Shown here: positions 8,754-57,817 of the stretch, one piece after another
Layout of the letters: every line of letters begins with the position of its first letter
Position numbering within the stretch: position 1 is the first letter of the stretch
IMG/VR virus record: IMGVR_UViG_2671180890_000001
Strand: one strand, 5' to 3'
Source of the DNA: a virus
Lineage: Duplodnaviria > Heunggongvirae > Uroviricota > Caudoviricetes
DNA: 62,572 nucleotides
The notes under the pieces: generated by a model
What the model was told of the DNA's origin: nothing
What the model saw: the letters and a program-made list of their open reading frames with translations, nothing else
Database searches by the model: none
Made by a program: the position numbers and the translations under genes

Positions 8754-8754
8754 G

Positions 8755-8783
8755 AAATATCCCCTGCATTGCAGGGGATATTG
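8755..8783. terminator. Bidirectional hairpin terminator after sopB
   Basis: Perfect inverted repeat ATATCCCCTGC-A-TTGCAGGGGATAT. Confidence 0.5.
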
Positions 8784-8915
8784 ATTTATGGTTGACTTGG
8801 CCACTCGATATCTGGAGATAGTGATGTATCAACACGATTCAACAACACCCGATACTTTTTCCAGGCTTCCAGCAACGGGGTTTCTTCCTCCGTTGCATAT
8901 ACAGCTCACCTTTTT

Positions 8916-13689: not shown

Positions 13690-16600
13690 TCAGCTGATAC
13701 TGATGCCTGCAGTGGCTTTCTTCATCACAACAACCAGCAAATCGCTGATACTTGCTGTGGGATACCAGCCATTTACCCACCATGCTGATACAGAAAACTC
13801 CAGTGTCATTACGCCACTGCCTGCAGGCATATCAATAACACCCGTGTAAATCAGAGTATTATCCAGAGCCGTTCGGTTATAAATTTCAGCCCCGTTTTTC
13901 TTCACTATCAGGCGGCATGACGAATAAGTATCGCTATTCTCCCGTTCATGTCTGGCACCGCTGAAAGCCACCGCTGGAATAACAATTTGCCGGTCAAACG
14001 GCTGATCGTCATAAACCCTGACGGTAATGGTCCCTGATGGCCACCGCTCCGGTGCACGGGAGTCCCGGGGGAAAGCTTTGCCCACTGTTTTAACGAGATC
14101 GCCTTCAATCTGGTTCGCGGACAGTTTTCCCAGAACCCGACAGTTCTCGTTAATCGTGACGTTGTTGAGCGTCCCGGAGTTCGCATTCACGCTACCGCTG
14201 ATATCGGCATTTTTCGCCGTCAGCCGCCCGTCCGGTGTCAGGGAAAATGCCGGAGGATTACCGCCGCTGGTAATGGTGGGAGCCGTCAGATATTTCAGGA
14301 ACACTTCATTCATGAATATCTGGTTGCCCTGCGCCACAAACATCGGCGTTTCATTCCCGTTTGCCGGGTCAATAAACGCGATACGGTTAGCGGCAACCAG
14401 GAACTGACTCAGTTTGCCTTCCTCCGTATCCTCCATGCTGAGGCCAAGCCCCGCGACATAATGTTTGCCGTCTTTGGTCTGCTCAATTTTGACGCCCCAC
14501 ATGGCATTCCATTTATCGTTGGCATCTTTCCACTCTTTCGAAAACTCATCCAGTCTGCTGGCGTTATCCTCCGTCAGGTCGACTTTTTCCAGCAGCTCCT
14601 TGCCGAGATGGGATTCGGTTATCTGGCCTTTGAAAAAATCCAGGTAACCTTCTGCATCATCGCTCGCCCGACCGACAGCCTCCACGAATGCCGATTTGCC
14701 AACGGTGTTCACACTGCGGATGTAAAAATAATAATCATGGCCCGGCTTGATATTGATACTGGCGGCTATCCAGTACAGCGCCGTACCAAGATAACGTGCG
14801 CTGGTTTCAACCTGCCTGATATCCGTAATCCGCTTTTCCGAGAACCAGAACTCAAACTGTACCGTCGGATCATAAACGGCAAGATGCGGCGTTGCGGTTA
14901 TCTGAAAATAGCCCGGCGTCAGCTCAATCCGCGACGGTGCTGCCGGTGCGGCAATCCGGAACGATACCGACGCCGGATCTCCCTGCTGCCCCCACGCATT
15001 TACCGCCCGGACTGTCAGCCTGTAGTTCCCCAGCGCCAGTTGCGTGAAGCGGTATGTGGTTTCCGTCGTCCGGGCCGTGCTGACCAGCCGCTCACTGCCG
15101 TCGTCCGCTGTTACGGTCAGACGGAGCAGGAAGCTCACGCCCTTCACCACCTTCGGTGTGTCCCATCGCGCCAGCACCTGATATTCCCCGCTGTCTGCAG
15201 TGACTTCTGCGGTCAGGTGCTGCACCGCTGGCGGCGTGACACCGTTCACCGTGCCACTCTGTTCGCCGTCAAAGTGCGCCCCGTTATCCACGATGGCCTC
15301 TTTTTCCGGCACATGCTGCACGGCGGTGATGGCATACGTGCCGTCGTCGTTCTCACGGATACTCACGCAGCGGAACAGTCGCTGGCGCAGCGTCGGCAGC
15401 TTCAGCCCCCATACGCTGTATTCAGCAACACCGTCAGGAACACGGCTCACTTTTACCTTCACGCCGTCGGTGACGGACTGAACCTCCACGCTGACCGGAT
15501 TGCCACTTCCGTCAACCAGGCTTATCAGCGTGGTACCGGAGGATGGCAGCGTGATTTCACGGTCGAGCGTCAGCGTCCGGGTCTGGCTGTTCACCGCCAG
15601 CACACGACCACCGGTGCTGATACCGGCATAGTCATCATCACAGATTTCAATAACATCGCCCGGTACATGGCGAAGCCCTTCTGCGCCGACGCTGAAATCC
15701 ACGGTCTGCGTTTCCAGCAGTTCTGTTTTAATCAGCCACAGCCCGGCGCGGTGTGCCTGCCCCCGGCTGGTACAGCCAAAGGCGTCCATCTTCGTGACGT
15801 TACGACCGTAACGGAGAATGGCCTGCGTATCTTCAACAAGCTCTGTCGCCGTCTCCCAGCCGTTGTTCGGGTCAATCCAGTTCACCTCAACGGCATTATG
15901 GCGGTCCTTCAGGGCGCTGAAACTGTAGCGGAACGGCGCGCCATCATCCGGCATCACCACATTACTGCGGTTATAGGTCCACACCTTATCCGACGGCCGG
16001 TCCTGCACGAACGTCAGCGTCTGCCCGTTCCATACCGGCATACAGCGCATCGCCGAGCAGAAATCACTGAGCACATCCCACGCCTTGCGCTGTGTGGTCA
16101 GGTAAGCGTTACAGGTGATGCGCGGCTCCGTGCCGCCAAAGCCGTCCGGCACCGACTGGTCGCAGTACTGGCCGATGACATACAGCGCCCATTTATCCAC
16201 ATCCGCCGCACCAAGACGTTTCCCCATGCCGTAGCGCGGATGGGTCAGCATATCCCACAGACACCAGGCCATGTTGTTGCTGTATGCCGGTTTAAACGTC
16301 CCGTCCCAGATACCGCTGTATTGCCGCGTCTGCGGGTTATAGTTCGACGGCACCTGCAGAATGCGCCCGCGAAGATGATAATTACGGCTCACCTGCTGGC
16401 TGCCGAACTGCTCCGAATCCACCTGTACGCCGACCAGTGCCGTGTTCGGGTAGCCCTGTTTCACATCGATGATTTCGGTGTATGACGACCAGAGCGTTTT
16501 GTTCTGCAGCTGGTCTGTGGTGCTGTCCGGCGTCATCCTGCGCATCCGGATATTAAACGGGCGCGGCGGCAGGTTATCCACCACCACCGAGGCCAGATAC

Positions 16601-32396: not shown

Positions 32397-32479
32397 TGTT
32401 CATTCCACGGACAAAAACAGAGAAAGGAAACGACAGAGGCCAAAAAGCCCGTTTTCAGCATCTGTCGTTTCCTTTCTTT

Positions 32480-32600
32480 TCAGGGGGTGTTTTAAATAAA
32501 AACATTAAGTTACGGCGAAGAAGAACGGAAACGCCTTAAACCGGAAAATTTTCATAAATAGCGAAAACCCGCGCGCCTTCCGCCCCGTAACAGGCCGGAT
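32480..32600 (-). promoter_or_regulatory. cos packaging site (cosB-like R and I1 elements, cosN region)
   Basis: Reverse complement closely matches lambda cosB (AAACGAAAACCCGC ... CATAAATAGCGAAAAC ... TTAAATAAAAACATTAAG); cohesive-end core differs from lambda. Confidence 0.7.
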
Positions 32601-32685
32601 CGCCGGAAAGGACCCGCAAAGATGAGAATAATTATTACTTGCATTAATATCCGGCTTCTTCCACCATCGCACCGGACGGGCGACT

Positions 32686-32830
32686 ATGAGGGACAAAACC
32701 GCGCACCATAAACGCGGTAAAAACCCGGTGTGCATCGTTTTTGATTATTCCCGCACACTCGCGCAGAAGGAGTTCCCCGTCGGGCTACGGTCATGGTTAA
32801 TGCGGGAATACAGCGACGATACAGCGCATG
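32686..32830. repeat. Direct repeat copy 1 (about 145 bp, ~90 percent identical to 34472..34620), flanking the AT-rich moron
   Basis: Shared core GCGGTAAAAACCCGGTGTGCATCGTTTTTGATTATT...GAGTTCCCCGTCGGGCTACGGTCATGGTTAATGCGG. Confidence 0.7.
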
Positions 32831-32943
32831 ATGTGTCAGGCTTGAATACATTTATCCGTTAAAAGGGATATCAGTTAAGTTATCCCGTGTAGGGTATAAG
32901 CCATTATCAAAGCCACTCAGTAGCGAATGGCTTTTGTAATGGA

Positions 32944-33393
32944 CTATTTAATTAGTGATGCTGCGTATTCGATTAGATATAACTTAGGTGCCAACCAGAT
33001 TTTTAACCATGTCATATTGGTTACTACAGCAATAATAAAACTTACCCACAGAACAAAAACTGCTGCTAATGGTAAGATAAGAAAACTAATCTCACCGTTA
33101 CTTTCCCAAATCATAGTCGGTTTGTATTTAGGCTTCCCTTTTTCCCATGACCATCCGTCATTATCGAACTTACCAATTTCAACTTTTTGGTACTGTTTCT
33201 TCATAAACCAAATAACCAGCGGAATTGTTGAAATTGCTATTAATGTTTTAATCAGGCTATCAACCATATTCCATACCAGCAACTGATGAACAACATCCGG
33301 AATCTGTGCCTGACTGAATGCAATGGCGGAATCAATTCCATCGCTGGCCTTCTTCAATAAATCAACAAGAATTTTATTTGCTTCTTCTTGCAT
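32944..33393 (-). CDS. Moron gene: small membrane protein, function unknown
   Basis: 149 aa, two or three hydrophobic segments, AT-rich coding sequence. Confidence 0.5.
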   Translation of the reverse strand: MQEEANKILVDLLKKASDGIDSAIAFSQAQIPDVVHQLLVWNMVDSLIKTLIAISTIPLVIWFMKKQYQKVEIGKFDNDGWSWEKGKPKYKPTMIWESNGEISFLILPLAAVFVLWVSFIIAVVTNMTWLKIWLAPKLYLIEYAASLIK

Positions 33394-33517
33394 GTTTATA
33401 TCCTGTAAGTTGTAAGCCTGTTCGAAAAAAAATAAACAACTACGAGAGACAGAAAAAATATCTCAGGCTCTCTTTCTATAAGCTTTTAGTTGAGGATGTT
33501 CTGCAAAACAAAACTGG

Positions 33518-34378
33518 TTAGTTATGTAACTGCTTCCGGAATACAACAGCCGACGTGCTACAACGTAAAATTCGCTTGATTGTGGCAGTTGAGGAAACAG
33601 ACTTGCATTTCTCAACATCATCAATAATGACCACATCCGGTACAGGAATGACGCGGGTATGCAATGTTTTTGCACTAATAACATCACAGCCATTCAGTGG
33701 TCGAATATCTGCATCTTCAGGCACTACCAGAAGCACACGTTTTTCCGGTGCAGAAAAGCCAGCAGCAAGAGTGCGTGACAATAAAGTCATTCCGCTGCAT
33801 GGCTTCATACAAATTTCAGAAATATGATTCTTTTCGTCCAAATGATGCTGGACATCATTTTTATCATCACTCAACAACTCTGCTGTTAATACAATCCCTG
33901 CTGTCTCAGATTTCCAGGAAATGCTGATATCCTGATCATCTGCATCAACATCATATTCCATCGAGTAAGGACTAAAGCTACGTCCAACGAACGCATCATT
34001 TACCAGTACACGCCCACCCTGTCTGACCTGAAAGTCAACGCGCCCTGAAAGCTGATTTGCTGTTACAAGCAATGCCTTTTTTCTTTTTGTTTTATTGCTC
34101 ATTGCCACCAACTGTTCAGCCATCTCTCTTGTCACACTACCAGAAACTCTTTCTTGAATTTTCACAGAAAATTTTCTGGATGTAGTAGCATCGACATTAA
34201 AAAATCTGGATGTCATCAGGCAGTTATTAACAATTGGCATCAGCTCACTTACGATTGTAAAAAATTCCCGGTAAAGCTCATTTTGCTTTTCAACACACAG
34301 CTTTCCACAATCGTCCAGCTTACGCTCAAGAGCACTTAACCTTTCCATTATTGAATTAATTTTTTGCAACTCTTTCAT
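33518..34378 (-). CDS. Moron gene: 286 aa protein with N-terminal coiled-coil, function unknown
   Basis: ATG start at MKELQKIN; ORF-track N-terminal extension to 34639 is an artefact of reading through repeat copy 2 and a sopC-like palindrome. Confidence 0.5.
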   Translation of the reverse strand: MKELQKINSIMERLSALERKLDDCGKLCVEKQNELYREFFTIVSELMPIVNNCLMTSRFFNVDATTSRKFSVKIQERVSGSVTREMAEQLVAMSNKTKRKKALLVTANQLSGRVDFQVRQGGRVLVNDAFVGRSFSPYSMEYDVDADDQDISISWKSETAGIVLTAELLSDDKNDVQHHLDEKNHISEICMKPCSGMTLLSRTLAAGFSAPEKRVLLVVPEDADIRPLNGCDVISAKTLHTRVIPVPDVVIIDDVEKCKSVSSTATIKRILRCSTSAVVFRKQLHN

Positions 34379-34402
34379 CAAAACCTCCTGACAAAGATAC
34401 CG

Positions 34403-34418
34403 TGCGACCACGGTCGCA
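34403..34418. promoter_or_regulatory. sopC-like centromere palindrome (TGCGACCACGGTCGCA), site 1
   Basis: 16 bp perfect palindrome; one G-to-C change per half-site from the F sopC core TGGGACCACGGTCCCA. Confidence 0.6.
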
Positions 34419-34471
34419 CGCTCCTGAATACATGCCCTGTTTCTTCCACCCTCGCACAGGACTGGCGAGCA

Positions 34472-34620
34472 TGAGGGACAAACCCGCGAATCATTAGCGC
34501 GGTAAAAACCCGGTGTGCATCGTTTTTGATTATTTCCGCACACTCGCGCAGAGGAGTTCCCCGTCGGGCTACGGTCATGGTTAATGCGGAAATACGGCGA
34601 CGATGCAGCGCGGTATTTAA
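34472..34620. repeat. Direct repeat copy 2 (pairs with 32686..32830)
   Basis: See copy 1. Confidence 0.7.
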
Positions 34621-34622
34621 TG

Positions 34623-34638
34623 TGCGACCACGGTCGCA
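34623..34638. promoter_or_regulatory. sopC-like centromere palindrome, site 2
   Basis: TGCGACCACGGTCGCA. Confidence 0.6.
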
Positions 34639-34658
34639 AACGAGAAACAAAGAGATTT

Positions 34659-34970
34659 TTATGCTACAGAGGAACAAGCTGGCGGGTAATTCAGCGTAGT
34701 GAATACCGGCATCTCCATCTTGTATGCGTAATGATACTCAGCAGTTGCTCCAGCAGACGCTTTCCAGCCAGGAAGCATCAAAATAGCATCAGCACAACGA
34801 AGCATTGCAAAGCAAATATCCATGTATTCACGTTGTGTCAGACCATTAGGCAAAGTGGCTGGATTCAAGACAGAGTGACCATGTCGTGACAAACGATCTG
34901 CCTCTTTATTAAAGGCGTCACGATTAAAGTTCTCATATCCCGTCATTGGCCCGGCAATATAAATTTTCAT
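34659..34970 (-). CDS. DUF4406-like protein (nucleoside 2-deoxyribosyltransferase-like fold)
   Basis: 103 aa; N-terminal MKIYIAGPMTG motif. Confidence 0.55.
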   Translation of the reverse strand: MKIYIAGPMTGYENFNRDAFNKEADRLSRHGHSVLNPATLPNGLTQREYMDICFAMLRCADAILMLPGWKASAGATAEYHYAYKMEMPVFTTLNYPPACSSVA

Positions 34971-36310: not shown

Positions 36311-37432
36311 TTACTCAAATAACTTTTTCACTTCATCAACTGTCTGAAGATAACGTTCGCCCTCAATCTCAATACCTATTGCCTGACGTCCTAACTTCAG
36401 CGCAGCTTTAATAGTTGAGCCTGATCCCATAAAGAAATCGGCAACGATATCTCCGGGGCGTGAACTACTCTTTATAATATGTTCCATCATCGCTGCAGGT
36501 TTTTCACATGGGTGCTTGCCAGGATAATATTGCACAGGAGGAAACTCCCATACATCGGTATAAGGTACATCAGCAGTAACATGAAATGGACGGCGTAAAT
36601 TTTCATACTGAGCCTTCAAATCATCATACTGCTTCTTTACTTCCTCATAATGCAATTTCAGATCGCTATAACGCTTTTCATGTTCTGAATAATCAACATT
36701 AAAAGGATATGGACACGGGACACCGAGTGAATCTGCCTTCCTGCGAAATAATTCGCATAGTTTATTAAAATCAATTAATGATGGAAGCCGCCACTGCGAA
36801 TAAGAAAACCAGTGTGAACACATCTGCTTTCCTGTCGCTGAATTAATGTCTGCGGCTGATATATCTAACTGACGGCGAGCCAGCGAAAAAGCATCAATTA
36901 GTGGAGAAAAAATATTTTTTCTTAAATCTGCACATTTTGAAGCATAACCTGACTGACCTTTAGCATAACCTGACGCGCCGTAATGCTCTGCAAATAATAT
37001 TCTTTCAGTAGCAGGAAAATAAGCCCTTAAACTTTCTTTATGACAACCGCGCCACATACCACTGGGTTTAGCCCAAATGATATGGTTCAGAACATTGAAA
37101 CGGTCGCGAGTTAATAATTCAATTTTTGACGCAAGGCGAGAGCCGGTAAACATATACAGGCTGCCATTAGGGGCCAATATCCGCCAAAATTCTGCCAAAA
37201 ATTCGTCAATCCACCCCAAAAAGTCAGCATCGCTATCCCACTGGTTATCCCATGCGTTAGCCTTTACGCCGAAGTATGGTGGGTCTGTTGCAATCAAATT
37301 GACCGAGTTATCAGGGATGGTTTTGATAAATTGCAGAGAATCTGCGCAAACGAGTTGTGCGCCATGAATATTAGTGGTTTTGAACATAGCTATTATTTTT
37401 TTGCCTGGGTAAGCTAACCCGGCGATGCGCAT
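36311..37432 (-). CDS. Orphan DNA methyltransferase (N6-adenine or N4-cytosine, DPPY class)
   Basis: DPPY catalytic motif near the N-terminus and FxGSGST AdoMet motif near the C-terminus; no adjacent restriction enzyme gene. Confidence 0.85.
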   Translation of the reverse strand: MRIAGLAYPGKKIIAMFKTTNIHGAQLVCADSLQFIKTIPDNSVNLIATDPPYFGVKANAWDNQWDSDADFLGWIDEFLAEFWRILAPNGSLYMFTGSRLASKIELLTRDRFNVLNHIIWAKPSGMWRGCHKESLRAYFPATERILFAEHYGASGYAKGQSGYASKCADLRKNIFSPLIDAFSLARRQLDISAADINSATGKQMCSHWFSYSQWRLPSLIDFNKLCELFRRKADSLGVPCPYPFNVDYSEHEKRYSDLKLHYEEVKKQYDDLKAQYENLRRPFHVTADVPYTDVWEFPPVQYYPGKHPCEKPAAMMEHIIKSSSRPGDIVADFFMGSGSTIKAALKLGRQAIGIEIEGERYLQTVDEVKKLFE

Positions 37433-43136: not shown

Positions 43137-43779
43137 TTAATAATGCAGTTCGATTTAAGCTCAGACATCGCGACTTAATTAAAAGCCAGCGTTCTTTATA
43201 ATCTTGTCTCCAGCTATCAATAGATATATTCAGTAGAAAACTCAGATGCCTGTCCTGTTCTCTCTCATCAACTGCCTCAGCACACGTAAGTTCTGATTTA
43301 ACCTGTTGTGCCGCGTAATAAATCAATTTCCGCATGGCTTTTTTCGTGGAGGCCTTCATTTTTTTAAAGCCGCCCCCCGAATGAGCAACCAGAAAATCAA
43401 GCCATAACCACTGACAAACAATCACATCATTGTTGTAATCAGGCTTGCATCCGTAGCAATAATAAAGCCAGGCTGATTCCTCGTTATTCAACTGACCAAT
43501 AGCCCTGCGCCAGCTGGCGCTCTGAAAATCAATATCAGTGAGCAACATTGATGATTGTTTAAATGTTTTCCCCTGGTGGAATCTAACCGGCTCAGCAGGA
43601 ACGGACACTTCGTATGAGTTATCATCCCCCACACTGATTGACCGGACTGGTTTATTGTTAAACCGTCCTGATCTACCGAGACGCATCTGCTCAAGCTGGA
43701 CCTCCAGAATGCCACGCTGGCGATAATGAACATCAGCCAATGCCGTAGAGACGCAGCTGCGTATATACTCAAGCTCCAC
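43069..43779 (-). CDS. Putative late antitermination protein Q-like
   Basis: 236 aa; position immediately downstream of cro on the same strand; family assignment not verified. Confidence 0.4.
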   Translation of the reverse strand: MELEYIRSCVSTALADVHYRQRGILEVQLEQMRLGRSGRFNNKPVRSISVGDDNSYEVSVPAEPVRFHQGKTFKQSSMLLTDIDFQSASWRRAIGQLNNEESAWLYYCYGCKPDYNNDVIVCQWLWLDFLVAHSGGGFKKMKASTKKAMRKLIYYAAQQVKSELTCAEAVDEREQDRHLSFLLNISIDSWRQDYKERWLLIKSRCLSLNRTALLNAAEKRSEIIKRHRAGSAILSL

Positions 43780-44017
43780 GCTTACGACTCTCCTTAATCG
43801 ACTGCTTTACCCGCCGAGTTGTAAAGTCACTCTTCAGCTTATAAGCAGTACGAACTTCAATATCGCTTTGCCGCAATGAAGGAATCTCTCCAGCGGTTAA
43901 CCATTGGTAAACAGCTCCGGGTGTTACACCTACCCCTGCCGCTGCTTTTTCTACACTGCCAAAATGGCGAATAAGTTCTTCTGGTTTCATGTTGTTATTA
44001 TAAACAATAAACAACAA
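43769..44017 (-). CDS. cro: Cro-like repressor
   Basis: 82 aa with HTH (VGVTPGAVYQWL), divergent from the CI-like repressor. Confidence 0.6.
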   Translation of the reverse strand: MLFIVYNNNMKPEELIRHFGSVEKAAAGVGVTPGAVYQWLTAGEIPSLRQSDIEVRTAYKLKSDFTTRRVKQSIKESRKRGA

Positions 44018-44081
44018 TTAAAGCCAGCTATAATAAATAAATTTTATAGCCAGCTATAAGAAGATCATTTATGATTACAGT
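44018..44081. promoter_or_regulatory. Divergent promoter/operator region between cro and cB
   Basis: Repeated AGCCAGCTATAA / TTATAGCCAGCTATAA motifs. Confidence 0.5.
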
Positions 44082-44678
44082 ATGAAAACACGAGGCGAAC
44101 GACTGAAAGCACGCCGTTTAGAGATGAAGCTGACGTTGCGAGAAGTTGCTGAGGCTGTCGATATCTCTATAGCAGGCGTCCAAAACTTAGAACGTGGCGA
44201 CGTAATGCCGTCACTGGAGATAGGTATTGCCCTGGCTAAGTGCTTACGCAAGCCAGTGCATTGGGTGCTATATGGGACAGAATATGACCCTGATCGCATT
44301 CCTGTTATTGGCACAACTGAAAGTGGGCCGGATGAAGAGTGGAAGCCGGGACAGGTTCCAAATACTGAGCGATTCCTGCCATTCATCAGCCAGCGCAATA
44401 CTGTGTATGCGTTAACTATCAGCAATCTTACGCAGGGAAACTATCAGCCAGGCGATTTTCTCCTGGTCGATTCTGCGCTGGAACTGGTCCCCGGCGAGGA
44501 TGTTCTGGTTCGTGATACTGCAGGAAATATCACTATCCAGCGCCTGGCCCGTTTTGATGATGAAAATTACTATCTGGATGGAACAAACTCACAACGCGCC
44601 ATCTTCAGGAAAAGCGATCTTGAATTTGTTCACCAAATAGTCGGAACGATCAAATCATTCATGGTTGAGGGTAGATGA
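44082..44678 (+). CDS. cB: Prophage repressor, CI/CB-like (HTH plus C-terminal S24-like domain)
   Basis: 198 aa; N-terminal HTH_XRE LTLREVAEAVDISIAGVQNLERG. Confidence 0.8.
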   Translation: MKTRGERLKARRLEMKLTLREVAEAVDISIAGVQNLERGDVMPSLEIGIALAKCLRKPVHWVLYGTEYDPDRIPVIGTTESGPDEEWKPGQVPNTERFLPFISQRNTVYALTISNLTQGNYQPGDFLLVDSALELVPGEDVLVRDTAGNITIQRLARFDDENYYLDGTNSQRAIFRKSDLEFVHQIVGTIKSFMVEGR

Positions 44679-44923: not shown

Positions 44924-47900
44924 ATGACATTAAACGATTTCTATGCGGATCGCTTTGGCAGCGATCCGTTCTCGCTAATTGAAGCAGCACGGGATGAACT
45001 AACCGAGCTGGCACAGATGGCTGGTATCAACTGGCCTGCCTGTTCCGACAACATCCAACTCAACCCTCGCGGGGGGGTTGAGCGTTACTCTTCATACAAT
45101 AAAACATCTCCAGAAGCTCTCGAAAAGAGCCTGAAAGGACGCGTAGAAATTTACTCCAGGCTGGAACACAGCAAAGGGATTGATTACCCGTTCATTAACT
45201 TCGTCCATAAAGGCAGCGATGCTGGCTCATGGAGCGGTTTCTCCTTCCTGTTTTCTGAATATCGCCGTGAGCAACAACGGAATAATGCGACCGTGGTCGC
45301 ACAACCGGAAGAAGAACGGGAAAGAATAGAACGTCAGGCCGAAGCACGTCGTCGCCGTGAAGAACAAAAACGAATTAATGACCTGAAAAACAACCAAATG
45401 GACCATGAACGTTTGCTGGGATGGCTGGCATTCCACAGCGCGTGGGAACATGCTCCGGCTGAAGACGGCTCATGGCCATATGCGATTAAAAAAGGTATTC
45501 GTGACGTTTTTAGTTCATGTGATGTGCGTCGCGTGACCAGTCACGACAGTGCGAAATGGAGCCGGGGGCCAACCACATATATGGCTATCCCTCTGGCTCA
45601 CCTGGACAGTCGTTATGATGGTCGTATTGTGGGTTGGCAGCGAATCGACAAACAAGGTGGGAAATACCAGACCAGCGCAGTAACCAGCGGCGATTTCGTC
45701 GGTGCCTGCTTTGTTATCGGTGAGCTGAAAGGGGCGCAAAACATCGCTGTTACAGAAGGTTTTGCTACTGGTGCATCCATCTGGCTTGCCACGAAAAAAG
45801 ATAAACGCTTTGACGCTGTGGTTGTCGCTGTATCCGCTAACAACATGGTTCATGTTGTGGAACAACTGGTAAACATGTACCCGGCGGCAAAAATCACCTG
45901 CGCACTGGATAATGACCGGAAATCTGCCACAGAAGGAAAAGGGAATACCGGCCTGCGGACTGGCTATGAAATCTTATCGAAATTCAACGATGTCCGCTGC
46001 GTCTATCCAACTTTTGAAGACGATCCGCAAATGGAGTGCAGTGACTTCAACGACCTGCACAAACTACGTGGACTTCGTGAAACAGCACGTCAACTGTTTG
46101 CAACAGCAAACCGCCTGAAAACCGGTACTGATTTGCTATCTCTGACGCTCAACCGCCTGAAGACAATTAAGCGGGATAACCGTCGTACTTTTGCCAAAGA
46201 GCTGCTGAGAGCGGTGGATATTGGCATGCTAACCTGTCCGGTTCCTAACAGTCCGTCAGATTTATTTAACATGTTCTGCATCGTTCTGCGTGAAATGGGA
46301 CTGGAAAATATCTATCGTGCTACGGTAAAAGACCACATTGCCCGTCGCCTGAATAAAAAGTGCCGTATTGCCCAGGCTCCGCGCTCTTTCAGCGAACGCA
46401 TAACTGATCCCAATAAACGACCTCAACATATCACCTATAAGCGTTTTGAAACTTCGGTAATGACCGATGATGTCCTGAAGTACGTGCAATCACTACAGGG
46501 GATAGTCATCGTCCGTGCTGGTATGGGTTCCGGCAAATCTACTGGATTGTTACGACCGTTAATGCATAGCTCAGAACGTGGTATCTCTGTTGCTCACCGT
46601 GTCTCCCTTATTGGTGGCCTGTGGGAAATGATGACAGAAGGAAAAGGTGTAAAAGCCGATATCCTGCACTATCAGGATCCTGGCTATCAGGAAATGGCTC
46701 CATACGCCAGTAAACTGACCATCTGCATAAACTCGATTGTTAAAAACTGCTGGCAACCGTTGATGCGCCAGCACGACTATTTTGGCTTTGACGAGGCCAC
46801 ACAAGGGCTACGTGCCGTTCTTTCCGGTCGGGCTATGGAAAACCCGGTGGCTGTATTCAATACGCTAATTGACGCGCTGGCCAGAACGGAACAACACCCA
46901 ATCATGGTGGATGCTGATGCGAACGATCTGCTGGTTGACCTGGCTGAACTGGCTATGAAACGCCGTGAAGAACTAGGTTTACCGGCATGGCTGCAGATCC
47001 ACGTAATTGAATTACCTGTTGATGTTCGCAACCGCGAAACAGGTGAGCCAATCCGGGTTTTTTATACAGAAAAAGATCGCATCATGACCGAGGTGGTGAA
47101 AGCTGTATCGGATGGCGAAAAAATCATGTTGGCCACCGACAGCTCCACCTTTGCAGAAGATGTGACAGCCACCCTGAGAATGCATTTTCCTGGTAAGAAA
47201 TTTCTGTGTGTAAACCAGAAAAACAAACCAGAGCCAGAAGTTGAAGCATTTACCAATCAACCGAAAAAGATGGTCAAAAAATACGACGGCCTGATTTATA
47301 GCCCGTCTATTTCATCCGGCGTGTCGATTGAGCAAAAACATTTTGACCGTCATTTCGGCATGTTCTGTGGTGAAGTTGTACCCAGCGACGCAGTGCAAAT
47401 GCTACGCCGCGACCGTACAGCAAAAGAATTTATTATCGGCTTTGATAAAGCTCGTGCAAAACGTGAAACTGACCCGCAAAAAATAGAACGAGCATTCGCC
47501 CAGGCATTGCTTGCTACTGCAGGTATGAACGGTGAACTGACGGATGTCGTTTTCGATGGCGACCGTATATCAATGGGGGTGGCCAATACCGACTTTACCA
47601 GGATGAAAATTAAAGCAGCCGCAATTGAAGCGTCTGCACGTAACGACTACGCCAGCAACATGATCTGCATCATGCACAGCGACGGTTATAAGATATCGCC
47701 GCTGGCCACCGATTATGCTGCAAATGATATCGGTAAAGATCTGCGTAAAGAAGCGCGGGATATTGTGTGGGAACAGACACTGGATCTGCATCTCAATACA
47801 GAAACTCCACAAGAATCAGAGCGTGAAGAACTGCTAAAAAAACGCGCGCTGACGCTTGAAGAACAGGCAAAACTTGTCCGCTGGGATATTGAGAACGAAC

Positions 47901-48919
47901 TGAAACTACCGGTTGAAGAAGGCACGCTGAAATTCTATTTCGATGGTGCTCGAGACAAAGTTCGCCGCTATGAAACAATGCTTTTAGATGAGGTAACAGC
48001 TCGTCGTTACGACCGGGAAGAAGCAGCCATCAATTTTACCTACGCATACCGTCAGGCGGGACAGTGGCAATATTTTGTAGTGACCGCAATGACTCGCGAG
48101 CAGGCTGATGATGTCTTTAAAACTAAATTCCCTGGAATAATCGACTACAAGGTAAAAGCTACTCCTACTGTTGAAGTCGGGGCGCGCGGTTTCTATGCGC
48201 TTAAATCAGCAACTCTCCGGCAGTACTTTATCGACTGCGGTATCAACCCTGAGACTATGACCGGCGAGGCGACTCAGGAGCGTCTCAAATTTGCTCGAGA
48301 TAACCTCATGACAGCCGAACGCCGTGACCTGTTGAATAACGTTCTGCACATTGGTGGTTTTATGACGCCAAAAGGGAAGCCTAAAGTGCCGGAAGCGTTG
48401 TTTAAAAACATTTGCGACTCTCTTGGCCTTAAAACAGGTAAACGTCGCGGCAGAGACGGCGATAAGCGTCCAACCTTGCGTTTTGTTGAGCCTGAATCAG
48501 CGGCATTTATGCTGGATATTCTTGCTCAGCGTCAGAAAGATGGCCTAACCCTGAAAACGCGTAAAGCCGAGAAGACTGCCATCGAAATGGATCGCGATTT
48601 GGATCTCAATATATATATGGATGATAAAACGCGATCCACAAACGAGCAGGTTCAAAACGCCCCTCATTCAGTAATTTCTGAGGCTTTGGCTGTGTTGCCA
48701 GTGGTTGTACCTGAGTCCTGGGCGATGAGTGCGCTTTCCGGTGAGGAGCTGGCCACTATGTCATCATGGTCATCAGCTAGCATAGCTATGACGTTTGCAT
48801 CTCTGTACCTCACAGAGTTCATGGATCACTTATCCAGCAATGAACTGCGGCGGTTACGTGAATACATTACCGGGAATAGCCCATGCAGCTACGAAGAGCA
48901 GGGCGCTTTCTATGGGTAA
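44924..48919 (+). CDS. repA: RepA multifunctional replication protein (primase plus helicase), N15 RepA-like
   Basis: 1331 aa; TOPRIM-like CALDNDRK region; Walker A GMGSGKST. Confidence 0.9.
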   Translation: MTLNDFYADRFGSDPFSLIEAARDELTELAQMAGINWPACSDNIQLNPRGGVERYSSYNKTSPEALEKSLKGRVEIYSRLEHSKGIDYPFINFVHKGSDAGSWSGFSFLFSEYRREQQRNNATVVAQPEEERERIERQAEARRRREEQKRINDLKNNQMDHERLLGWLAFHSAWEHAPAEDGSWPYAIKKGIRDVFSSCDVRRVTSHDSAKWSRGPTTYMAIPLAHLDSRYDGRIVGWQRIDKQGGKYQTSAVTSGDFVGACFVIGELKGAQNIAVTEGFATGASIWLATKKDKRFDAVVVAVSANNMVHVVEQLVNMYPAAKITCALDNDRKSATEGKGNTGLRTGYEILSKFNDVRCVYPTFEDDPQMECSDFNDLHKLRGLRETARQLFATANRLKTGTDLLSLTLNRLKTIKRDNRRTFAKELLRAVDIGMLTCPVPNSPSDLFNMFCIVLREMGLENIYRATVKDHIARRLNKKCRIAQAPRSFSERITDPNKRPQHITYKRFETSVMTDDVLKYVQSLQGIVIVRAGMGSGKSTGLLRPLMHSSERGISVAHRVSLIGGLWEMMTEGKGVKADILHYQDPGYQEMAPYASKLTICINSIVKNCWQPLMRQHDYFGFDEATQGLRAVLSGRAMENPVAVFNTLIDALARTEQHPIMVDADANDLLVDLAELAMKRREELGLPAWLQIHVIELPVDVRNRETGEPIRVFYTEKDRIMTEVVKAVSDGEKIMLATDSSTFAEDVTATLRMHFPGKKFLCVNQKNKPEPEVEAFTNQPKKMVKKYDGLIYSPSISSGVSIEQKHFDRHFGMFCGEVVPSDAVQMLRRDRTAKEFIIGFDKARAKRETDPQKIERAFAQALLATAGMNGELTDVVFDGDRISMGVANTDFTRMKIKAAAIEASARNDYASNMICIMHSDGYKISPLATDYAANDIGKDLRKEARDIVWEQTLDLHLNTETPQESEREELLKKRALTLEEQAKLVRWDIENELKLPVEEGTLKFYFDGARDKVRRYETMLLDEVTARRYDREEAAINFTYAYRQAGQWQYFVVTAMTREQADDVFKTKFPGIIDYKVKATPTVEVGARGFYALKSATLRQYFIDCGINPETMTGEATQERLKFARDNLMTAERRDLLNNVLHIGGFMTPKGKPKVPEALFKNICDSLGLKTGKRRGRDGDKRPTLRFVEPESAAFMLDILAQRQKDGLTLKTRKAEKTAIEMDRDLDLNIYMDDKTRSTNEQVQNAPHSVISEALAVLPVVVPESWAMSALSGEELATMSSWSSASIAMTFASLYLTEFMDHLSSNELRRLREYITGNSPCSYEEQGAFYG
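45286..45301. promoter_or_regulatory. sopC-like centromere palindrome, site 5, inside repA codons 121-127
   Basis: TGCGACCGTGGTCGCA encoding NATVVAQ. Confidence 0.6.
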
Positions 48920-49103
48920 TCAGTGGATATTATCTTTGTGTCTCTTGCTTTGTGTGTTCCAGCAATGGTTTTGGTTCATAGATCGAAAGTCTCACAAGGA
49001 AAACATGAAGGCCAGGAAGGCGATGTTTCGTGGTGAACAACTCGCGCAGACTTATCGTATGTGGAAACGTTTCTATCGTGATTTTTCGGTGAACGGGGAG
49101 TAA
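48912..49103 (+). CDS. Hypothetical small membrane protein
   Basis: Internal Met MGNQWILSLCLLLC; overlaps repA stop. Confidence 0.4.
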   Translation: MGNQWILSLCLLLCVFQQWFWFIDRKSHKENMKARKAMFRGEQLAQTYRMWKRFYRDFSVNGE

Positions 49104-49107
49104 AAAT

Positions 49108-49434
49108 ATGTCTACTACTGCATTTTTGGACAAACTTGATTACCGTCAGCTGCAGTTTTGCCGGGATGAATGCGATCGACGCATTAAGGCTATCCAGGAG
49201 GAAGAAAAAAAGGTTGCCTGGGCTGTAACAGATCGTGGCCTTATCTTTGGCTGGTTCCGTACGGAGGATTATCTGAAAGCAGTGGAATTATTGGCGCGTG
49301 AGGCTGCTGAGCGTTGGGAACGAGCCGACAAGGAAAACCCGGAGACGAAGTATGAACTGAATCTCTACATCGAGGGCAACCGTCTACCATTGTCAGAGTA
49401 TAACGCTTTGTTTGCTGATGGTGAGTGGGGTTAA
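49108..49434 (+). CDS. Hypothetical protein
   Basis: 108 aa ORF. Confidence 0.5.
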   Translation: MSTTAFLDKLDYRQLQFCRDECDRRIKAIQEEEKKVAWAVTDRGLIFGWFRTEDYLKAVELLAREAAERWERADKENPETKYELNLYIEGNRLPLSEYNALFADGEWG

Positions 49435-49832
49435 AAATGGCTGTTCAATCATACAAATACGAATCCCCTTTGGATAAGGGATACATTCGTATCAAGTTAA
49501 GTCGTTCTCAACATAAGGCTATTTTTAAGGTAAGGAAAATTCGCATATTGGATGCGTATGCGTATTACTACAACGGTGAAAATGTTGTTGTTGAACACTT
49601 TCTTGCACGATGGTTTGTAGCTCTGATTTTTGTCCCTCTCCTGTTAATTGGTACTTTTGTGGATGGTTTTCCTAGTACATGGCGGGAGATAAAGAAAGGC
49701 CTATTCCCGCGTAAGTACGGCAGATTTTCGCAAGATAGCTGGCGAGTTATACCTGGTAAACATTCTGTGGATGAGCAGCCGATTGTTGATTACTGGTTGA
49801 AGCGTATGGCTGATGCTAAAAAAGTTGATTGA
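49425..49832 (+). CDS. Hypothetical membrane protein
   Basis: 135 aa ORF with a central hydrophobic segment. Confidence 0.5.
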   Translation: MGLKMAVQSYKYESPLDKGYIRIKLSRSQHKAIFKVRKIRILDAYAYYYNGENVVVEHFLARWFVALIFVPLLLIGTFVDGFPSTWREIKKGLFPRKYGRFSQDSWRVIPGKHSVDEQPIVDYWLKRMADAKKVD

Positions 49833-49921
49833 ATAGTGATGACTGTTCAAGTTAAACCGTTCTCGGCATATTTTATTTAATGGAATAACATATTATTAAT
49901 CAAATAGGTTAAGTTAATATT

Positions 49922-50734
49922 ATGCGTAACAAAAAAACAACAGCTTTATTACTCTCTATCTTGTTATTATCTGGATGCACTTATCAATATGATAATAAGG
50001 CATCAACGGACGTTGAGTATAAATTCGAAAAAGAAAAAAGAGTACCTATCAACTCTGTTGGTGATTTTAGCAGCAAAATACTCACAGGTAAGGAATTTAA
50101 TAGAATTATTGCATCAAAGATAGATGATGGTTCATGGCGTGGATATGTCGTTCACTCATTAACATACGCGCCATACAACAACGTTTTAACATCTCAAGGT
50201 TTGTCTATCCCTAGAAGTATCACATACTCAGGAACATATCTTAACCGTGATTTTGTTGAGAATAGCGGTAGTGATAGCGTGATAACATCTCGAGATATGT
50301 CTGGATGGTATGGTTTTCATGTCGATTCCTCTGAAATAACAAAGCATGGAAGCTATGTTGGTGCTAATGCTTTTGGAATATCTGCTGATGTAGAAGTGTT
50401 AAATACTTTAGGTGCCGAAATTATCTTTGGTAGTACACAAATAAATGAAGGGAACCCTGAAACAATATGGGCAGATATTGATATAAAAGGACAAATACCA
50501 AAAGATGTTAATGTAAAAGACCTTAGAATTGAATATTTAGCAAAGATAAATGGGTTAAGCAGTAATCATATTGATATAACATCACCTACTATTTTTAACC
50601 CGTCAGATATGAGCCATAAAACTCAGGTTTTTATGGGTGAGTTATTAGCCGCGCGCCTAATAAATATTAAAACGGGAGAAATTTATCCAGTACAGCTAGA
50701 GTGGGTGTTCCGTTCGCGTGAGGCTTTCTTATAA
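49922..50734 (+). CDS. Moron lipoprotein, function unknown
   Basis: 270 aa; signal peptide with lipobox LLSGC; strongly AT-rich gene. Confidence 0.6.
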   Translation: MRNKKTTALLLSILLLSGCTYQYDNKASTDVEYKFEKEKRVPINSVGDFSSKILTGKEFNRIIASKIDDGSWRGYVVHSLTYAPYNNVLTSQGLSIPRSITYSGTYLNRDFVENSGSDSVITSRDMSGWYGFHVDSSEITKHGSYVGANAFGISADVEVLNTLGAEIIFGSTQINEGNPETIWADIDIKGQIPKDVNVKDLRIEYLAKINGLSSNHIDITSPTIFNPSDMSHKTQVFMGELLAARLINIKTGEIYPVQLEWVFRSREAFL

Positions 50735-50864
50735 CGGAACAATAACATTGTTCATGTTCTGATCGTTTGTTCAAGCAAACTATAAAAACACCTGTCCCCG
50801 TGACTGGTCACGGGGTAAAATGTCTTTGCAAATTATTGACGTGTGCGTCGTTTTGGAGGTAAAG

Positions 50865-50950
50865 TCACCTCGCTGCGGTAAATCCCGCAGTCGGGACTTC
50901 GCAATCCTGGCAAAACGAAGCGCACAACACGCGCCAGCGTGTTTTTTTGT
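50865..50950 (+). ncRNA. Candidate c4-like cis-antisense regulatory RNA upstream of icd-ant
   Basis: TTGACG and TAAAGT promoter-like hexamers, CTGCGG/CCGCAG stem-loop, ACACGC/GCGTGT terminator plus T7; two 8 nt blocks complementary to a site about 100 nt downstream. Confidence 0.4.
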
Positions 50951-51111
50951 GTGTATAGACCTGCGCATATCCGAATTATGGTGGCTCAGGTGGGGCTGAC
51001 TTCGGTCGGGCCGGTTTCTTCGTTTACCGGTATTGCGAACCCCGCCTGGGCTACCACCAATAAAGAGATTCGCAACTCTGGTGGTAGCACGACCAATAAA
51101 ACGGAGTGCAT

Positions 51112-51279
51112 ACCATGTTCAAATTCAAATTTGCGGCAGTCGTTCGCACAGACAAAAAGTCCCACATTCATCATCTTTCCACTATCGCGTCATCTGAACG
51201 GGAAGCTCGTCGCCAGTTCGCCAGCCGGTTTGTCCTGGTATTGTCTGCCCGTATTCCGGTGCGCGAGGTGGCTGCATGA
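51112..51279 (+). CDS. icd: Icd-like cell division inhibitor (55 aa)
   Basis: MFKFKFAAVVRTDKK ... SSEREARRQFAS pattern; not in the ORF track because under 60 aa; coordinates approximate. Confidence 0.45.
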   Translation, partial: TMFKFKFAAVVRTDKKSHIHHLSTIASSEREARRQFASRFVLVLSARIPVREVAA

Positions 51280-51509
51280 ATCAGGTAAAAATGAACACTG
51301 TTGGCCTGCTGGAATCGTTGGATGAACGTCTGGCTCAGGTCTATGCGCTCGTATCATCAGCCCATCGGACAGTCTCCAGTTGTGAGGCGTCGATTTACCT
51401 CTCAGAGGCTGGAAAACTTCTGCAGATTGCGTGTGAGTTAACGCATGAAGCACAGGGATATTCTGCGTCTCTCTCGTCGCACTTGCTGCGCGATAAGGAG
51501 GCTGAATGA
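51276..51509 (+). CDS. Hypothetical protein in the antirepressor operon
   Basis: 77 aa ORF, translationally coupled to the flanking genes. Confidence 0.5.
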   Translation: MNQVKMNTVGLLESLDERLAQVYALVSSAHRTVSSCEASIYLSEAGKLLQIACELTHEAQGYSASLSSHLLRDKEAE

Positions 51510-52288
51510 GCGCGTTAGCAGTCTTTTCCTTTCAGGAAGAGCATCAGGTTCGTGTAGTGATGATTAACGGTGAGCCGTGGTTTGTGGCTAAGGATGTATG
51601 TGATGCTTTAAGACTCGTTAATTCCCGGAAGGCGCTAATGTCTCTGGATGAGGATGAAAAGGGTGTAACTTTAAGTTACACCCCTGGCGGAGAGCAAAAG
51701 CTAAATATTATTTCAGAGTCAGGTCTATACACCCTGATCCTCCGCTGCCGTGACGCGGTGAAGCAAGGCACAACAGCTTGGCGGTTTCGCAAATGGGTAA
51801 CGAACGAAGTCTTGCCCTCTATTCGCAAAAATGGAGAGTACGTTTACATCGAGCCTGAGCCAATGCGAGCAGCGGAGCCGTTGAACTGGAGGCAGAAAGA
51901 GTATCTGCGAGGGCTGATTAACGATATAGCACAAAGTTTTCAGTACCGAAATGCCTGGATTAGCGGTGTATGGTTAGCTTTGCGTCGGGCGTGTCGTAAT
52001 CCATCCCCGAACCCCATAACGGTTGATGATTTGCCAGCAATTACGGCAGAACTGCGCCGGATTTTGACGGCTGCTGAGTCGGCATTGGGGAACATGCGCA
52101 CGTATGAACGAGAGTTGTTGCGTGATGTTGTTCGTGGGGGTAGGCGGAGTATGTCGTGTGGTGATTTACCCATCACCGATATTAACTCTGATCTGGAAAA
52201 GGCGTTACCCGCGCATTTTGAACTGGCAGTTCAAAAACTTGAGCAGTTATCCGCGCAGCTAAAGCCAGCAGAAATCACCAATAAATAG
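51506..52288 (+). CDS. Antirepressor with Bro-N domain
   Basis: 260 aa; N-terminal FSFQEEHQVRVVMINGEPWFVAKDVCDAL. Confidence 0.75.
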   Translation: MSALAVFSFQEEHQVRVVMINGEPWFVAKDVCDALRLVNSRKALMSLDEDEKGVTLSYTPGGEQKLNIISESGLYTLILRCRDAVKQGTTAWRFRKWVTNEVLPSIRKNGEYVYIEPEPMRAAEPLNWRQKEYLRGLINDIAQSFQYRNAWISGVWLALRRACRNPSPNPITVDDLPAITAELRRILTAAESALGNMRTYERELLRDVVRGGRRSMSCGDLPITDINSDLEKALPAHFELAVQKLEQLSAQLKPAEITNK

Positions 52289-52459
52289 GGTTGACCAGCC
52301 CGAATTTATGCCCTTCTTAGAGAAGGGAAGCCTCGCAGTCGGGGCGGTGATGTCTGTGGTTGCAGCCGCGTTTCCTCCGTTACTTCTGCCCTTTGCAGGG
52401 GGCAGGCGAGGTAGGTCACACAACAAGGCACCGTTAATTCGGTGCCTTTACTGTATGCT

Positions 52460-54355: not shown

Positions 54356-54525
54356 CTTTCCTCTCCTGATTATCCGCTCGGATTATCGTAACACAATTTG
54401 AGAATAAGATAACTAATAACGCGTTAACTTAGGCACAAACTAACAGAACACAACAACGGATAATAAATAAAAACACAATATCGGAACGTTAAAATTTGTT
54501 CCTTGACTTTGTTCTGAAAATCAGC

Positions 54526-54567
54526 ACATAATTCCCCATTATACGCACGTATAATGGGGAATTATGT
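54526..54567. repeat. Right hairpin telomere (telR) read-through: same 20 bp arms around a CA centre at 54546-54547
   Basis: ACATAATTCCCCATTATACG-CA-CGTATAATGGGGAATTATGT. Confidence 0.85.
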
Positions 54568-54737
54568 GCTGATTTTCAGAACAAAGTCAAGGAACAAATT
54601 TTAACGTTCCGATATTGTGTTTTTATTTATTATCCGTTGTTGTGTTCTGTTAGTTTGTGCCTAAGTTAACGCGTTATTAGTTATCTTATTCTCAAATTGT
54701 GTTACGATAATCCGAGCGGATAATCAGGAGAGGAAAG

Positions 54738-56633: not shown

Positions 56634-56804
56634 AGCATACAGTAAAGGCACCGAATTAACGGTGCCTTGTTGTGTGACCTACCTCGCCTGCCCCCTGCAA
56701 AGGGCAGAAGTAACGGAGGAAACGCGGCTGCAACCACAGACATCACCGCCCCGACTGCGAGGCTTCCCTTCTCTAAGAAGGGCATAAATTCGGGCTGGTC
56801 AACC

Positions 56805-57587: not shown

Positions 57588-57817
57588 TCAGCCTCCTTAT
57601 CGCGCAGCAAGTGCGACGAGAGAGACGCAGAATATCCCTGTGCTTCATGCGTTAACTCACACGCAATCTGCAGAAGTTTTCCAGCCTCTGAGAGGTAAAT
57701 CGACGCCTCACAACTGGAGACTGTCCGATGGGCTGATGATACGAGCGCATAGACCTGAGCCAGACGTTCATCCAACGATTCCAGCAGGCCAACAGTGTTC
57801 ATTTTTACCTGATTCAT
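57584..57817 (-). CDS. Hypothetical 77 aa protein (fold-back copy of 51276..51509)
   Basis: Identical translation. Confidence 0.45.
   Translation of the reverse strand: MNQVKMNTVGLLESLDERLAQVYALVSSAHRTVSSCEASIYLSEAGKLLQIACELTHEAQGYSASLSSHLLRDKEAE

Follow-up and report, generated by a model that had tools for sequence, protein, structure and literature searches.

How did two AT-rich genes come to lie between two copies of one sequence at the end of a phage late region, and do they act together for the benefit of the host? We addressed these questions for positions 32,686 to 34,638 of a 62,572-nucleotide (nt) stretch of tailed-phage DNA (Caudoviricetes; IMG/VR virus record IMGVR_UViG_2671180890_000001), referred to below, at its full length, as the window. 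On the minus strand the genes run in the order holin, lysozyme, Rz, DUF4406, a gene for a 286-amino-acid (aa) protein (33518..34378), a gene for a 149-aa protein (32944..33393), cos, Nu1 and A. The 286-aa and 149-aa genes, together called the cargo, are flanked by two copies of a direct repeat, which we call the core. An original prediction had read the locus as cargo acquired by recombination at a duplicated target and as a candidate host-benefiting exclusion system. Its placement of the cargo between the lysis genes and cos matches the minus-strand gene order, and the AT-rich segment that it described is seen as a dip in GC content to 0.36-0.44 over 32900-34400, with flanks at 0.48-0.60; the 286-aa gene has a GC content of 40.9% and the 149-aa gene one of 36.0%, whereas the window as a whole has 48.1%. 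We consider it probable that the locus arose by ordinary mosaic insertion through a shared linker, and that the cargo consists of two independent genes whose expression would be late and lytic.

Since the window is collinear at 98% with the linear plasmid pCAVP367-48, whose annotation includes a protelomerase, a CyRepA1 replication protein, SopA and SopB, a Q antiterminator and a lambda-like virion module, we identify it from its sequence as an N15-like linear telomere phage-plasmid of Escherichia coli with lambda-type packaging genes. Near-identical RefSeq plasmids have the coding sequences (CDSs) for the 286-aa and 149-aa proteins annotated likewise.

Origin of the flanking repeats

A repeat search resolved the flanking sequence into two blocks, one of 128 nt at 86% identity (32640-32767 and 34425-34552) and one of 60 nt at 95% identity (32768-32827 and 34552-34611), which is collinear with the first apart from a 1-nt indel. 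Direct repeats of about 145 bp had been predicted; they do exist, but the two blocks together cover about 188 nt, a length far above chance, and enclose the shorter intervals first described. On the minus strand, core copy 1 (32640..32827) is the cos-proximal copy and core copy 2 (34425..34611) the lysis-proximal one. In an alignment in late sense, we compared both with two references: the one core of pZ1323HEC0355-3 (L002), a sister plasmid that lacks the cargo, and another haplotype, represented by L109 and Ayreon. Over columns 1-90, copy 2 agrees with pZ1323HEC0355-3 at all 12 sites that differ between the copies, and copy 1 agrees with the other haplotype at 11 of them, with a private base at the twelfth. 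Over columns 134-266, it is copy 1 that agrees with pZ1323HEC0355-3 (22 of 24 sites), and copy 2 agrees with L109 (24 of 24). In both copies the switch of haplotype falls within the invariant columns 91-133, a stretch of about 44 nt. The cos side of copy 1 and the lysis side of copy 2 are accordingly of the pZ1323HEC0355-3 haplotype, and the sides that face the cargo are of the Ayreon/Stx/L109 haplotype in copy 1 and the L109 haplotype in copy 2. The two copies are thus chimeric in reciprocal fashion, as one homologous crossover within the core would leave them.

Comparison with related phage-plasmids had been proposed as a check, and pZ1323HEC0355-3 has a single copy of the repeat and lacks the cargo: its order is DUF4406, a palindrome of the N15 type described below, one chimeric core and cos. 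The cargo therefore sits between two genes that are adjacent in a relative, and its GC content (0.36-0.41) departs from that of the window (0.48), as is usual for a moron. The sister plasmid could equally well show the empty site in its ancestral state or result from recombination between both copies. We propose that a cargo-free genome of this type (DUF4406, palindrome, core, cos) would have been the recipient, and that the donor DNA would have carried, in order, a core, a palindrome, the 286-aa gene, the 149-aa gene, a terminator hairpin, a further stretch that we call the extension, and another core. One homologous crossover in the invariant stretch would have joined the two, by Campbell-like integration of a circle or by unequal exchange. 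The outcome would be two reciprocally chimeric cores around the cargo, and recombination between these copies would regenerate the empty site. The interval between the lysis cassette and cos would then be a variable accessory slot, and the core a linker common in lambdoid phages.

The distribution of the core bears on this proposal. Matches to its sequence were obtained in 433 phage records, those of Stx phages, mEp460 and Ayreon among them; of 5426 complete E. coli genomes, 4130 (about 76%) have it, at 8793 places in total and with up to 9 copies per genome. In the RefSeq rows sampled, nearly all of the matches coincide with no annotated feature, bar an occasional overlapping CDS. The core lies 3' of the lysis genes regardless of the packaging module that follows, whether lambda Nu1/A or HNH and terminase (as in Stx phage 1717), and its 5' half is present in phage lambda itself (46868-46974; 1469-1575 of L144), between bor and lambdap78. 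It is absent from N15. In many lambdoids the core is accompanied by the extension of about 110 nt, the two together making about 300 nt; in the window the extension occurs at copy 1 only (32828..32943), where it directly follows the stop codon of the 149-aa gene. The extension is closed by a hairpin, AAGCCA...TGGCTT (32910-32933), immediately 3' of the 149-aa gene, where Ayreon has an annotated terminator, and the stem carries a compensatory change in Stx phage 1717 (AGCCCA...TGGGCT). This hairpin could be a bidirectional terminator.

Because the repeat is a ubiquitous lambdoid intergenic element and its two copies are reciprocal chimeras, it is not the duplication of an insertion target; by distribution and sequence it is a non-coding lambdoid linker. 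We likewise rejected target-site duplication by transposition: the repeats are 188 nt long at 86-95% identity and belong to a widespread element, and the cargo contains no transposase or integrase. Of the earlier account of the locus, then, the insertion, the foreign composition and the recombination via the repeat stand, and the duplicated target falls away. A scan of genome contigs with a core-derived 16-mer gave chance matches almost throughout; the core was present in 4 of 120 loci, two of which look like contamination. Core sequences at 88-95% identity were seen on a 'Candidatus Nanosynbacter' metagenome-assembled contig (L182) and on a 468-bp Thiomicrorhabdus contig (L227); contaminating enterobacterial phage DNA in these assemblies is their most likely source.

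The moron concept is that of Hendrix and colleagues. The present cargo resembles the lambdoid morons (lambda bor and lambdap78/79; ylcI/ynfO in DLP12 and Qin) in that genes of deviant composition stand between genes that are adjacent in relatives, and in that gene boundaries coincide with homology breakpoints. The position is shared as well, for bor and DUF3950 genes occupy the same Rz-to-cos interval in other lambdoids. It differs in that no promoter of its own was detected, that a long linker is present in duplicate around the insert, and that the cargo is in late-operon sense, whereas bor, lambdap78 and the ylcI-type DUF3950 genes (PhiR34_1, PhiR70_1) are antisense. Two studies propose that the mosaics of temperate phages stem from relaxed homologous recombination between temperate phages and prophages (PMC3945230, PMC2327257). 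As in the events described there, exchange at this locus would have taken place at a short conserved stretch in genomes that otherwise diverge, here the invariant 44 nt or so of the core; the exchanges in those studies are replacements, however, whereas a duplication-flanked insertion would need a circle or unequal exchange. The locus is thus a further instance of a kind of event already known, phage mosaic recombination.

Coding and RNA potential of the core

On the plus strand, opposite in sense to the late operon, core copy 1 is spanned by an open reading frame (ORF) of 58 codons (32686-32862), after which come a hairpin and a T-run. Copy 1 and the consensus both preserve the ORF, which in copy 2 is interrupted by a stop codon and a frameshift. 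Among 94 distinct core copies it is missing or broken in 43 (46%). Variable sites are distributed 16/9/13 over the three codon positions, and 14 variants are synonymous and 34 non-synonymous, with 24% synonymous expected by chance. Pfam gave nothing for the product. In the absence of a third-position bias, with a near-neutral synonymous ratio and with so many broken copies, we rejected a 58-aa plus-strand gene. One variant of the ORF has an unrelated N-terminus and is still in frame.

The duplication of the core may be more than a scar: the core could itself be functional as a structured RNA in the late transcript, acting in processing, in stability or as an insulator, with the duplication selected. 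We regard this explanation as unlikely, while an RNA function as such is possible from the alignments. RNAalifold, applied to 66 distinct core copies, gave an interrupted stem of 28 pairs on the late-sense strand only, and in this stem 99.2% of the cells pair. Nearly all single-sided changes are transitions that preserve G-U pairs on the late-sense strand; on the opposite strand the same changes are A-C mismatches (22 sequences at pair 38-86). A change from C-G to U-A is seen at one pair, and the plus-strand ORF shows no coding constraint. However, covariation is weak, with double changes at 1 pair, and 3 of 500 runs of a shuffle control scored as high as the real alignment, which structure-free trees can also do. 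Folds of single sequences have z-scores of about -1. Moreover, one core copy suffices in the empty-site plasmid, and N15 does without any. Rfam 15, searched over 32400-34750, had no match at the gathering threshold, and the sub-threshold matches were noise from eukaryotic microRNA and long non-coding RNA models. We also considered the small RNAs AgvB, AsxR and Pas as the identity of the repeat and rejected them, as these are located between Q and holin and the Rfam models for AgvB and AsxR found no match. The duplicated core might be an unannotated structured RNA of lambdoid late transcripts that is present in three quarters of E. coli genomes. As a non-coding element of about 190 nt, widespread and mostly without annotation, it is possibly a more useful by-product of this analysis than the cargo.

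The 286-aa and 149-aa genes

The ATG of the 286-aa gene is preceded by AGGAGG; a mechanically called ORF of 373 aa, with a TTG start, extends the same frame back into repeat copy 2. Compared with its homologue in L139, the gene has a dN/dS of 0.25, and by this measure it is a real gene under purifying selection. Its product belongs to phrog_2571, a family of unknown function. A word-indexed search of 5.8 billion proteins returned 15 matches, of which the full-length ones are at least 79% identical to the 286-aa protein and the named ones all come from Escherichia, mostly from contigs of about 46 kb. An exhaustive HMMER search of 1.84 billion representatives added fragments of the same family and two weak matches to residues 101-191, one of which (P0025) is encoded in the late region of another prophage, where its gene lies between Q and holin. 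By the outcome of these searches, the protein is a lineage-restricted ORFan. Its most divergent full-length relative, P0009 (79% identical), is encoded in L139, where the order is Rz, extension, one core, palindrome, a 276-aa gene, cos and Nu1, with neither a 149-aa gene nor a second core in the 8.8 kb of contig examined. The original prediction had named the presence of the same two genes without flanking repeats in relatives as evidence against itself, and for the 286-aa gene this is what is found.

The AlphaFold2 model of the 286-aa protein (pLDDT 54) consists of a helical hairpin (residues 1-55), a beta region (100-170) and an alpha/beta domain (198-282). The earlier description as a coiled-coil protein holds for the hairpin of the first 55 or so residues and not for the remainder, with its beta-rich middle and alpha/beta C-terminus. 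Searching the protein against the PDB with hmmsearch gave P4 and Wzc at E 0.2-1.1, and Foldseek placed the model beside PilF, GspE, KaiC and thymidine kinase at E values of at least 2.6e-3; in the viral and PDB libraries, Foldseek found no match at E <= 0.001 for either cargo protein. BLASTP against the plasmid's own SopA was insignificant (E 2.8). We rejected a P-loop NTPase assignment for the C-terminus, which lacks the Walker A motif GxxxxGK[ST] and instead reads CSGMT...VVIIDD, with no lysine. The matches that recur, to RecA/P-loop ATPases, are marginal, and we keep a RecA/P-loop-like C-terminus as a lead and not as a classification.

The 149-aa protein (phrog_3054, also of unknown function) has hydrophobic stretches at about 43-65 and at 101-127; these are two predicted transmembrane (TM) stretches, as expected of the membrane protein that it had been taken for. 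Its gene has a dN/dS of 0.09-0.15 against three prophage homologues, values that identify it as a real gene under purifying selection. Relatives are numerous, with 488 in databases and tblastn matches in 177 phage genomes, and include those of virulent N4-like Vibrio phages and of myoviruses of about 146 kb. At 74-89% identity, family members occur singly in lambdoid and P22-like prophages; there they lie in the early-left operon, after N, by sieB and before cIII. Nucleotide homology to these prophage genes extends from the start codon at 33393 almost to the stop codon, ending no more than about 10 nt short of it (32956 or 32948), and homology to Ayreon and Stx phage 1717 begins at or just past the stop codon (32946 or 32942) and continues to 32650. 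Because the two genes occur separately and homology breaks at the ends of the 149-aa ORF, the cargo is a mosaic in its own right, made up of two cassettes. We propose that it combines two independently circulating genes: a 286-aa ORFan in the position between palindrome and cos that gene 59 holds in N15, and a 149-aa cassette otherwise typical of early operons in temperate and virulent phages.

AlphaFold2 modelled the 149-aa protein with a pLDDT of 64. In the family alignment the N-terminal 40 or so residues and the C-terminal helix of about 22 residues are conserved helices, and the two TM helices and the loop between them are variable, the loop being deleted in the 121-aa members of P22 type. 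This pattern of conservation is the reverse of that of typical holins.

One system or two

Pfam, PADLOC and PHROGs assigned both proteins only to PHROGs of unknown function. Pfam held no defence homology, and the single PADLOC match, to DrmMII (E 0.023, 11.5 bits), is noise. No known defence, exclusion, lysis or structural family matched either protein in the family, HMM and fold searches; the first impression that neither belongs to a recognised family was thus borne out by family, remote-homology and structure searches alike. The cargo does not occur as a conserved unit, as a 286-aa homologue is found alone in L139 and 149-aa homologues are found alone in phages and prophages. We infer that the two genes do not need each other.

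A crude consensus scan found no sigma-70-like site upstream of the 286-aa gene. Terminator-like hairpins bound the pair, downstream at 32910-32933 and upstream in the palindrome just before the 286-aa gene. Since no sigma-70-like promoter was found and the family contexts are N- and Q-dependent lytic operons, both genes would be read within the Q-dependent late transcript, and would therefore serve the lytic cycle of the phage rather than the lysogen. The likeliest role of the 149-aa protein would accordingly lie at the membrane, where blocking a secondary infection is the most natural guess and tuning envelope events another.

Several observations weigh against this account of two independent genes inserted through a linker and expressed late. 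Of 5426 complete E. coli genomes, 27 hold the intact pair at 94-100% identity, in one case within an integrated lambdoid prophage, so that both genes do travel together. A deletion from 32965 to 33793, at a GCTGC microhomology, takes away nearly all of the 149-aa gene and 93 codons from the end of the 286-aa gene; it is present in several plasmids, in phage YDC107_1 and in one IMG/VR contig, and destroys both genes at once, as a dependent pair would show. Two shorter cargo matches in E. coli genomes look like similar losses. The solitary 286-aa homologue of L139 was seen in 8.8 kb of contig, and a 149-aa homologue could lie elsewhere in that genome. The promoter scan, in turn, was a crude consensus search, and a weak or non-sigma-70 promoter could drive expression in the lysogen. 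Finally, core haplotypes recombine freely in nature, which puts the exact order of events beyond reconstruction. From the deleted forms, the cargo is dispensable despite purifying selection.

The observations on co-inheritance also fit the idea that the 286-aa protein, in the cytoplasm, and the 149-aa protein, in the membrane, form one superinfection-exclusion or abortive-infection system of benefit to the lysogen. The genes are adjacent, on one strand and in an AT-rich insert; they are inherited jointly in the 27 genomes and the mapped deletion hits both. The 149-aa family adjoins sieB in P22-like prophages, and its most variable part is the one that faces the periplasm or forms the loop. Nevertheless, each gene is found without the other, PADLOC and Pfam gave no significant match, and the pair has no detected promoter and a terminator-like hairpin upstream. 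The presence of the 149-aa family in virulent phages and in N-dependent early operons also speaks for expression in the lytic cycle rather than in the lysogen. We hold such a system to be quite unlikely, and the original suggestion of an exclusion pair that benefits the host finds no support in these comparisons: the genes part company in other genomes, no defence family is recognised, no promoter-like site was detected ahead of the pair, where a terminator-like hairpin lies, and the 149-aa family usually stands in operons of the lytic cycle. A DefenseFinder survey of seven N15-like phage-plasmids reported no complete defence system and no telocin homologues (bioRxiv 10.1101/2025.09.12.675607). 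Taken as a defence candidate, the locus is weak.

A more general role for the membrane protein may be considered. T4 Imm and Sp, P22 SieA and lambda/P22 SieB are small phage inner-membrane proteins that exclude superinfecting phages. Like them, the 149-aa family consists of small phage-encoded membrane proteins, found by sieB in P22-like prophages and early in virulent phages, although there is no detectable homology between them. The members of phrog_3054, with their strongly conserved terminal helices and variable TM and loop hairpin, might be widespread and so far undescribed lytic-cycle membrane effectors, which block superinfection or DNA entry or inhibit a membrane-associated host defence; in this phage-plasmid lineage the 286-aa protein, with a degenerate RecA/P-loop-like C-terminus, might be a recruited partner. 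We treat this as a speculative idea of low probability.

The cargo could instead supply accessories for lysis or another late stage, for instance one that regulates when the holin acts or how the envelope is disrupted. Its place immediately behind holin, lysozyme, Rz and DUF4406 in the late operon would suit such a role, as would a protein with two TM helices and conserved terminal amphipathic helices. Yet elsewhere the 149-aa family is found in early operons remote from lysis genes, sister plasmids with closely similar late regions lack the cargo or hold broken copies of it, and no holin, antiholin or spanin family was matched, all of which makes an accessory of this kind very unlikely.

In Klebsiella telomere phages, TelA and ImmA are a soluble protein and its cognate inner-membrane protein, expressed in lysogens and encoded between repA and telN (PMC12042878). 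The cargo shares with them the two-gene layout of a soluble and a small inner-membrane protein in a telomere phage, and the mapped deletion takes the membrane gene along with the 286-aa C-terminus, but a 286-aa toxin with a 149-aa immunity factor is extremely improbable given the different locus, the lack of sequence or fold similarity to TelA-ImmA and of homology to pore-forming bacteriocins or anything else, the intact 276-aa homologue with no adjacent membrane gene, a 149-aa family that is mostly without such a partner, and surveyed N15-like phage-plasmids that lack telocin homologues. The preferred reading therefore remains that of two independent genes, brought in through the linker.

SopB-type palindromes at the junction

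Core copy 2 is bracketed by two 18-bp palindromes that lie 220 bp apart. One, GTGCGACCACGGTCGCAC (34402..34419), is 23 nt upstream of the 286-aa start codon; the other, GTGCGACCACGGTCGCAA (34622..34639), is next to DUF4406 and is the only one of the two that pZ1323HEC0355-3 has at its empty site. Both follow the pattern GTGCGACC-NN-GGTCGCAC of N15 IR1-IR4. Exact or one-mismatch copies begin at 34402, 34622, 37632, 42842 and 45285, dispersed over the late and regulatory regions of the window, and five are thus seen where 0.01 would be expected. The palindrome is identical to the SopB-binding centromere repeats IR1/IR4 of N15 (PMC7205306, Table 4), and the replicon carries a cognate sopAB operon, as the sopA/sopB region of the 98%-identical plasmid corresponds to 6218-8896 of the window. 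Read on the late strand, the copy at 34402-34419 also has the score of a terminator-like hairpin. It is possible, from its position, that SopB silences the 286-aa gene through this putative site. A putative SopB site that abuts the ribosome-binding site of the 286-aa gene could couple the partition proteins to the expression of late-region cargo; like the core, these junction sites may prove of more use than the cargo.

N15 offers a close parallel. There, an identical palindrome, annotated as a terminator, stands upstream of gene 59, the last gene before cosR; in both replicons, then, a palindrome identical to IR1/IR4 lies directly 5' of the last gene or genes before cos. The DUF4406 neighbour (34659-34970, minus strand), a homologue of N15 gp57, is conserved as well; it is the left neighbour of the cargo and lies outside it. 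The slot holds variable cargo in both, a Dcm methylase (gp58/gp59 slot) and gp59 in N15 and the 286-aa and 149-aa proteins here. The two differ in that gp59 is unrelated to the 286-aa protein by BLASTP, that N15 lacks the core, and that N15 has four such sites against five in the window.

The module in an integrated prophage

The E. coli MS1657 chromosome (1979685-1993119) carries an integrated lambdoid prophage with ninB to Q and a lambda-family holin. It contains the module at 99.8% identity, in the order DUF4406, palindrome, core, palindrome, 286-aa gene, 149-aa gene, core and cos, and retains both cores and both N15-type palindromes, which are purposeless for partition there. To judge by this near-identity, an integrated prophage has evidently acquired late-region DNA of the phage-plasmid lineage. 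The locus is a natural example of phage-plasmids and lambdoid prophages trading late-region cargo through a non-coding linker, and filled, empty, one-gene donor-like and decayed states can all be observed.

Neighbouring features and replicon ends

A DNA methylase gene (36311-37432, minus strand) precedes holin in the minus-strand gene order. On the other side of the cargo, at 32574..32585, the minus strand reads GGGCGGAAGGCG, which aligns with the lambda-type GGGCGGCGACCT of related loci; at the aligned position, L109 and L082 have the canonical GGGCGGCGACCT, and L139 has GGGCGGAAGGCT. On this alignment and by comparison with lambda cos, we take it to be a putative cosN site. Between it and Nu1 lies a 26-nt inverted repeat, AGAAAGGAAACGACAG...CTGTCGTTTCCTTTCT (32421-32477), presumably the counterpart of the lambda cosB region with its gpNu1-binding R sites.

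Both plasmid ends are present in the window as perfect fold-back palindromes, one with arms at 46940-54545 and 54548-62151 and its centre at about 54546, and the other with arms at about 3432-6111 and 6218-8896 and its centre at about 6165. Because of these palindromes, the window is understood to read across both hairpin telomeres. The sequence at the palindrome centre, TCAGCACATAATTCCCCATTATACGCACGTATAATGGGGAATTATGTGCTGA, resembles the N15 telRL protelomerase target. The read-through would reflect either the unfolded assembly of a covalently closed linear plasmid or the junction of a replicative dimer. The fold-back duplicates telN, the icd/ant region, the C4 RNA and sopAB within the window. 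Rfam placed a single isrK match above the gathering score at 50872-50947, within 50872-51061 on the plus strand, and two copies of the C4 antisense RNA, likewise above that score, in the 50872-51061 (plus) region and at 58032-58119 (minus); the second C4 copy is present because the telomere fold-back mirrors the first. Together, the isrK and C4 matches indicate a putative antirepressor immunity region of P1/N15 type (icd/ant).

Further accessory cargo was noted on the replicon of pCAVP367-48 type. A gene for a macro-domain protein (43567-44469 of pCAVP367-48) stands between the tail-fibre gene and its assembly gene, in a stretch that is less conserved with respect to the window, and a RelE/ParE toxin with a helix-turn-helix antitoxin (14292-14890) is encoded upstream of the late region, collinear with the window.

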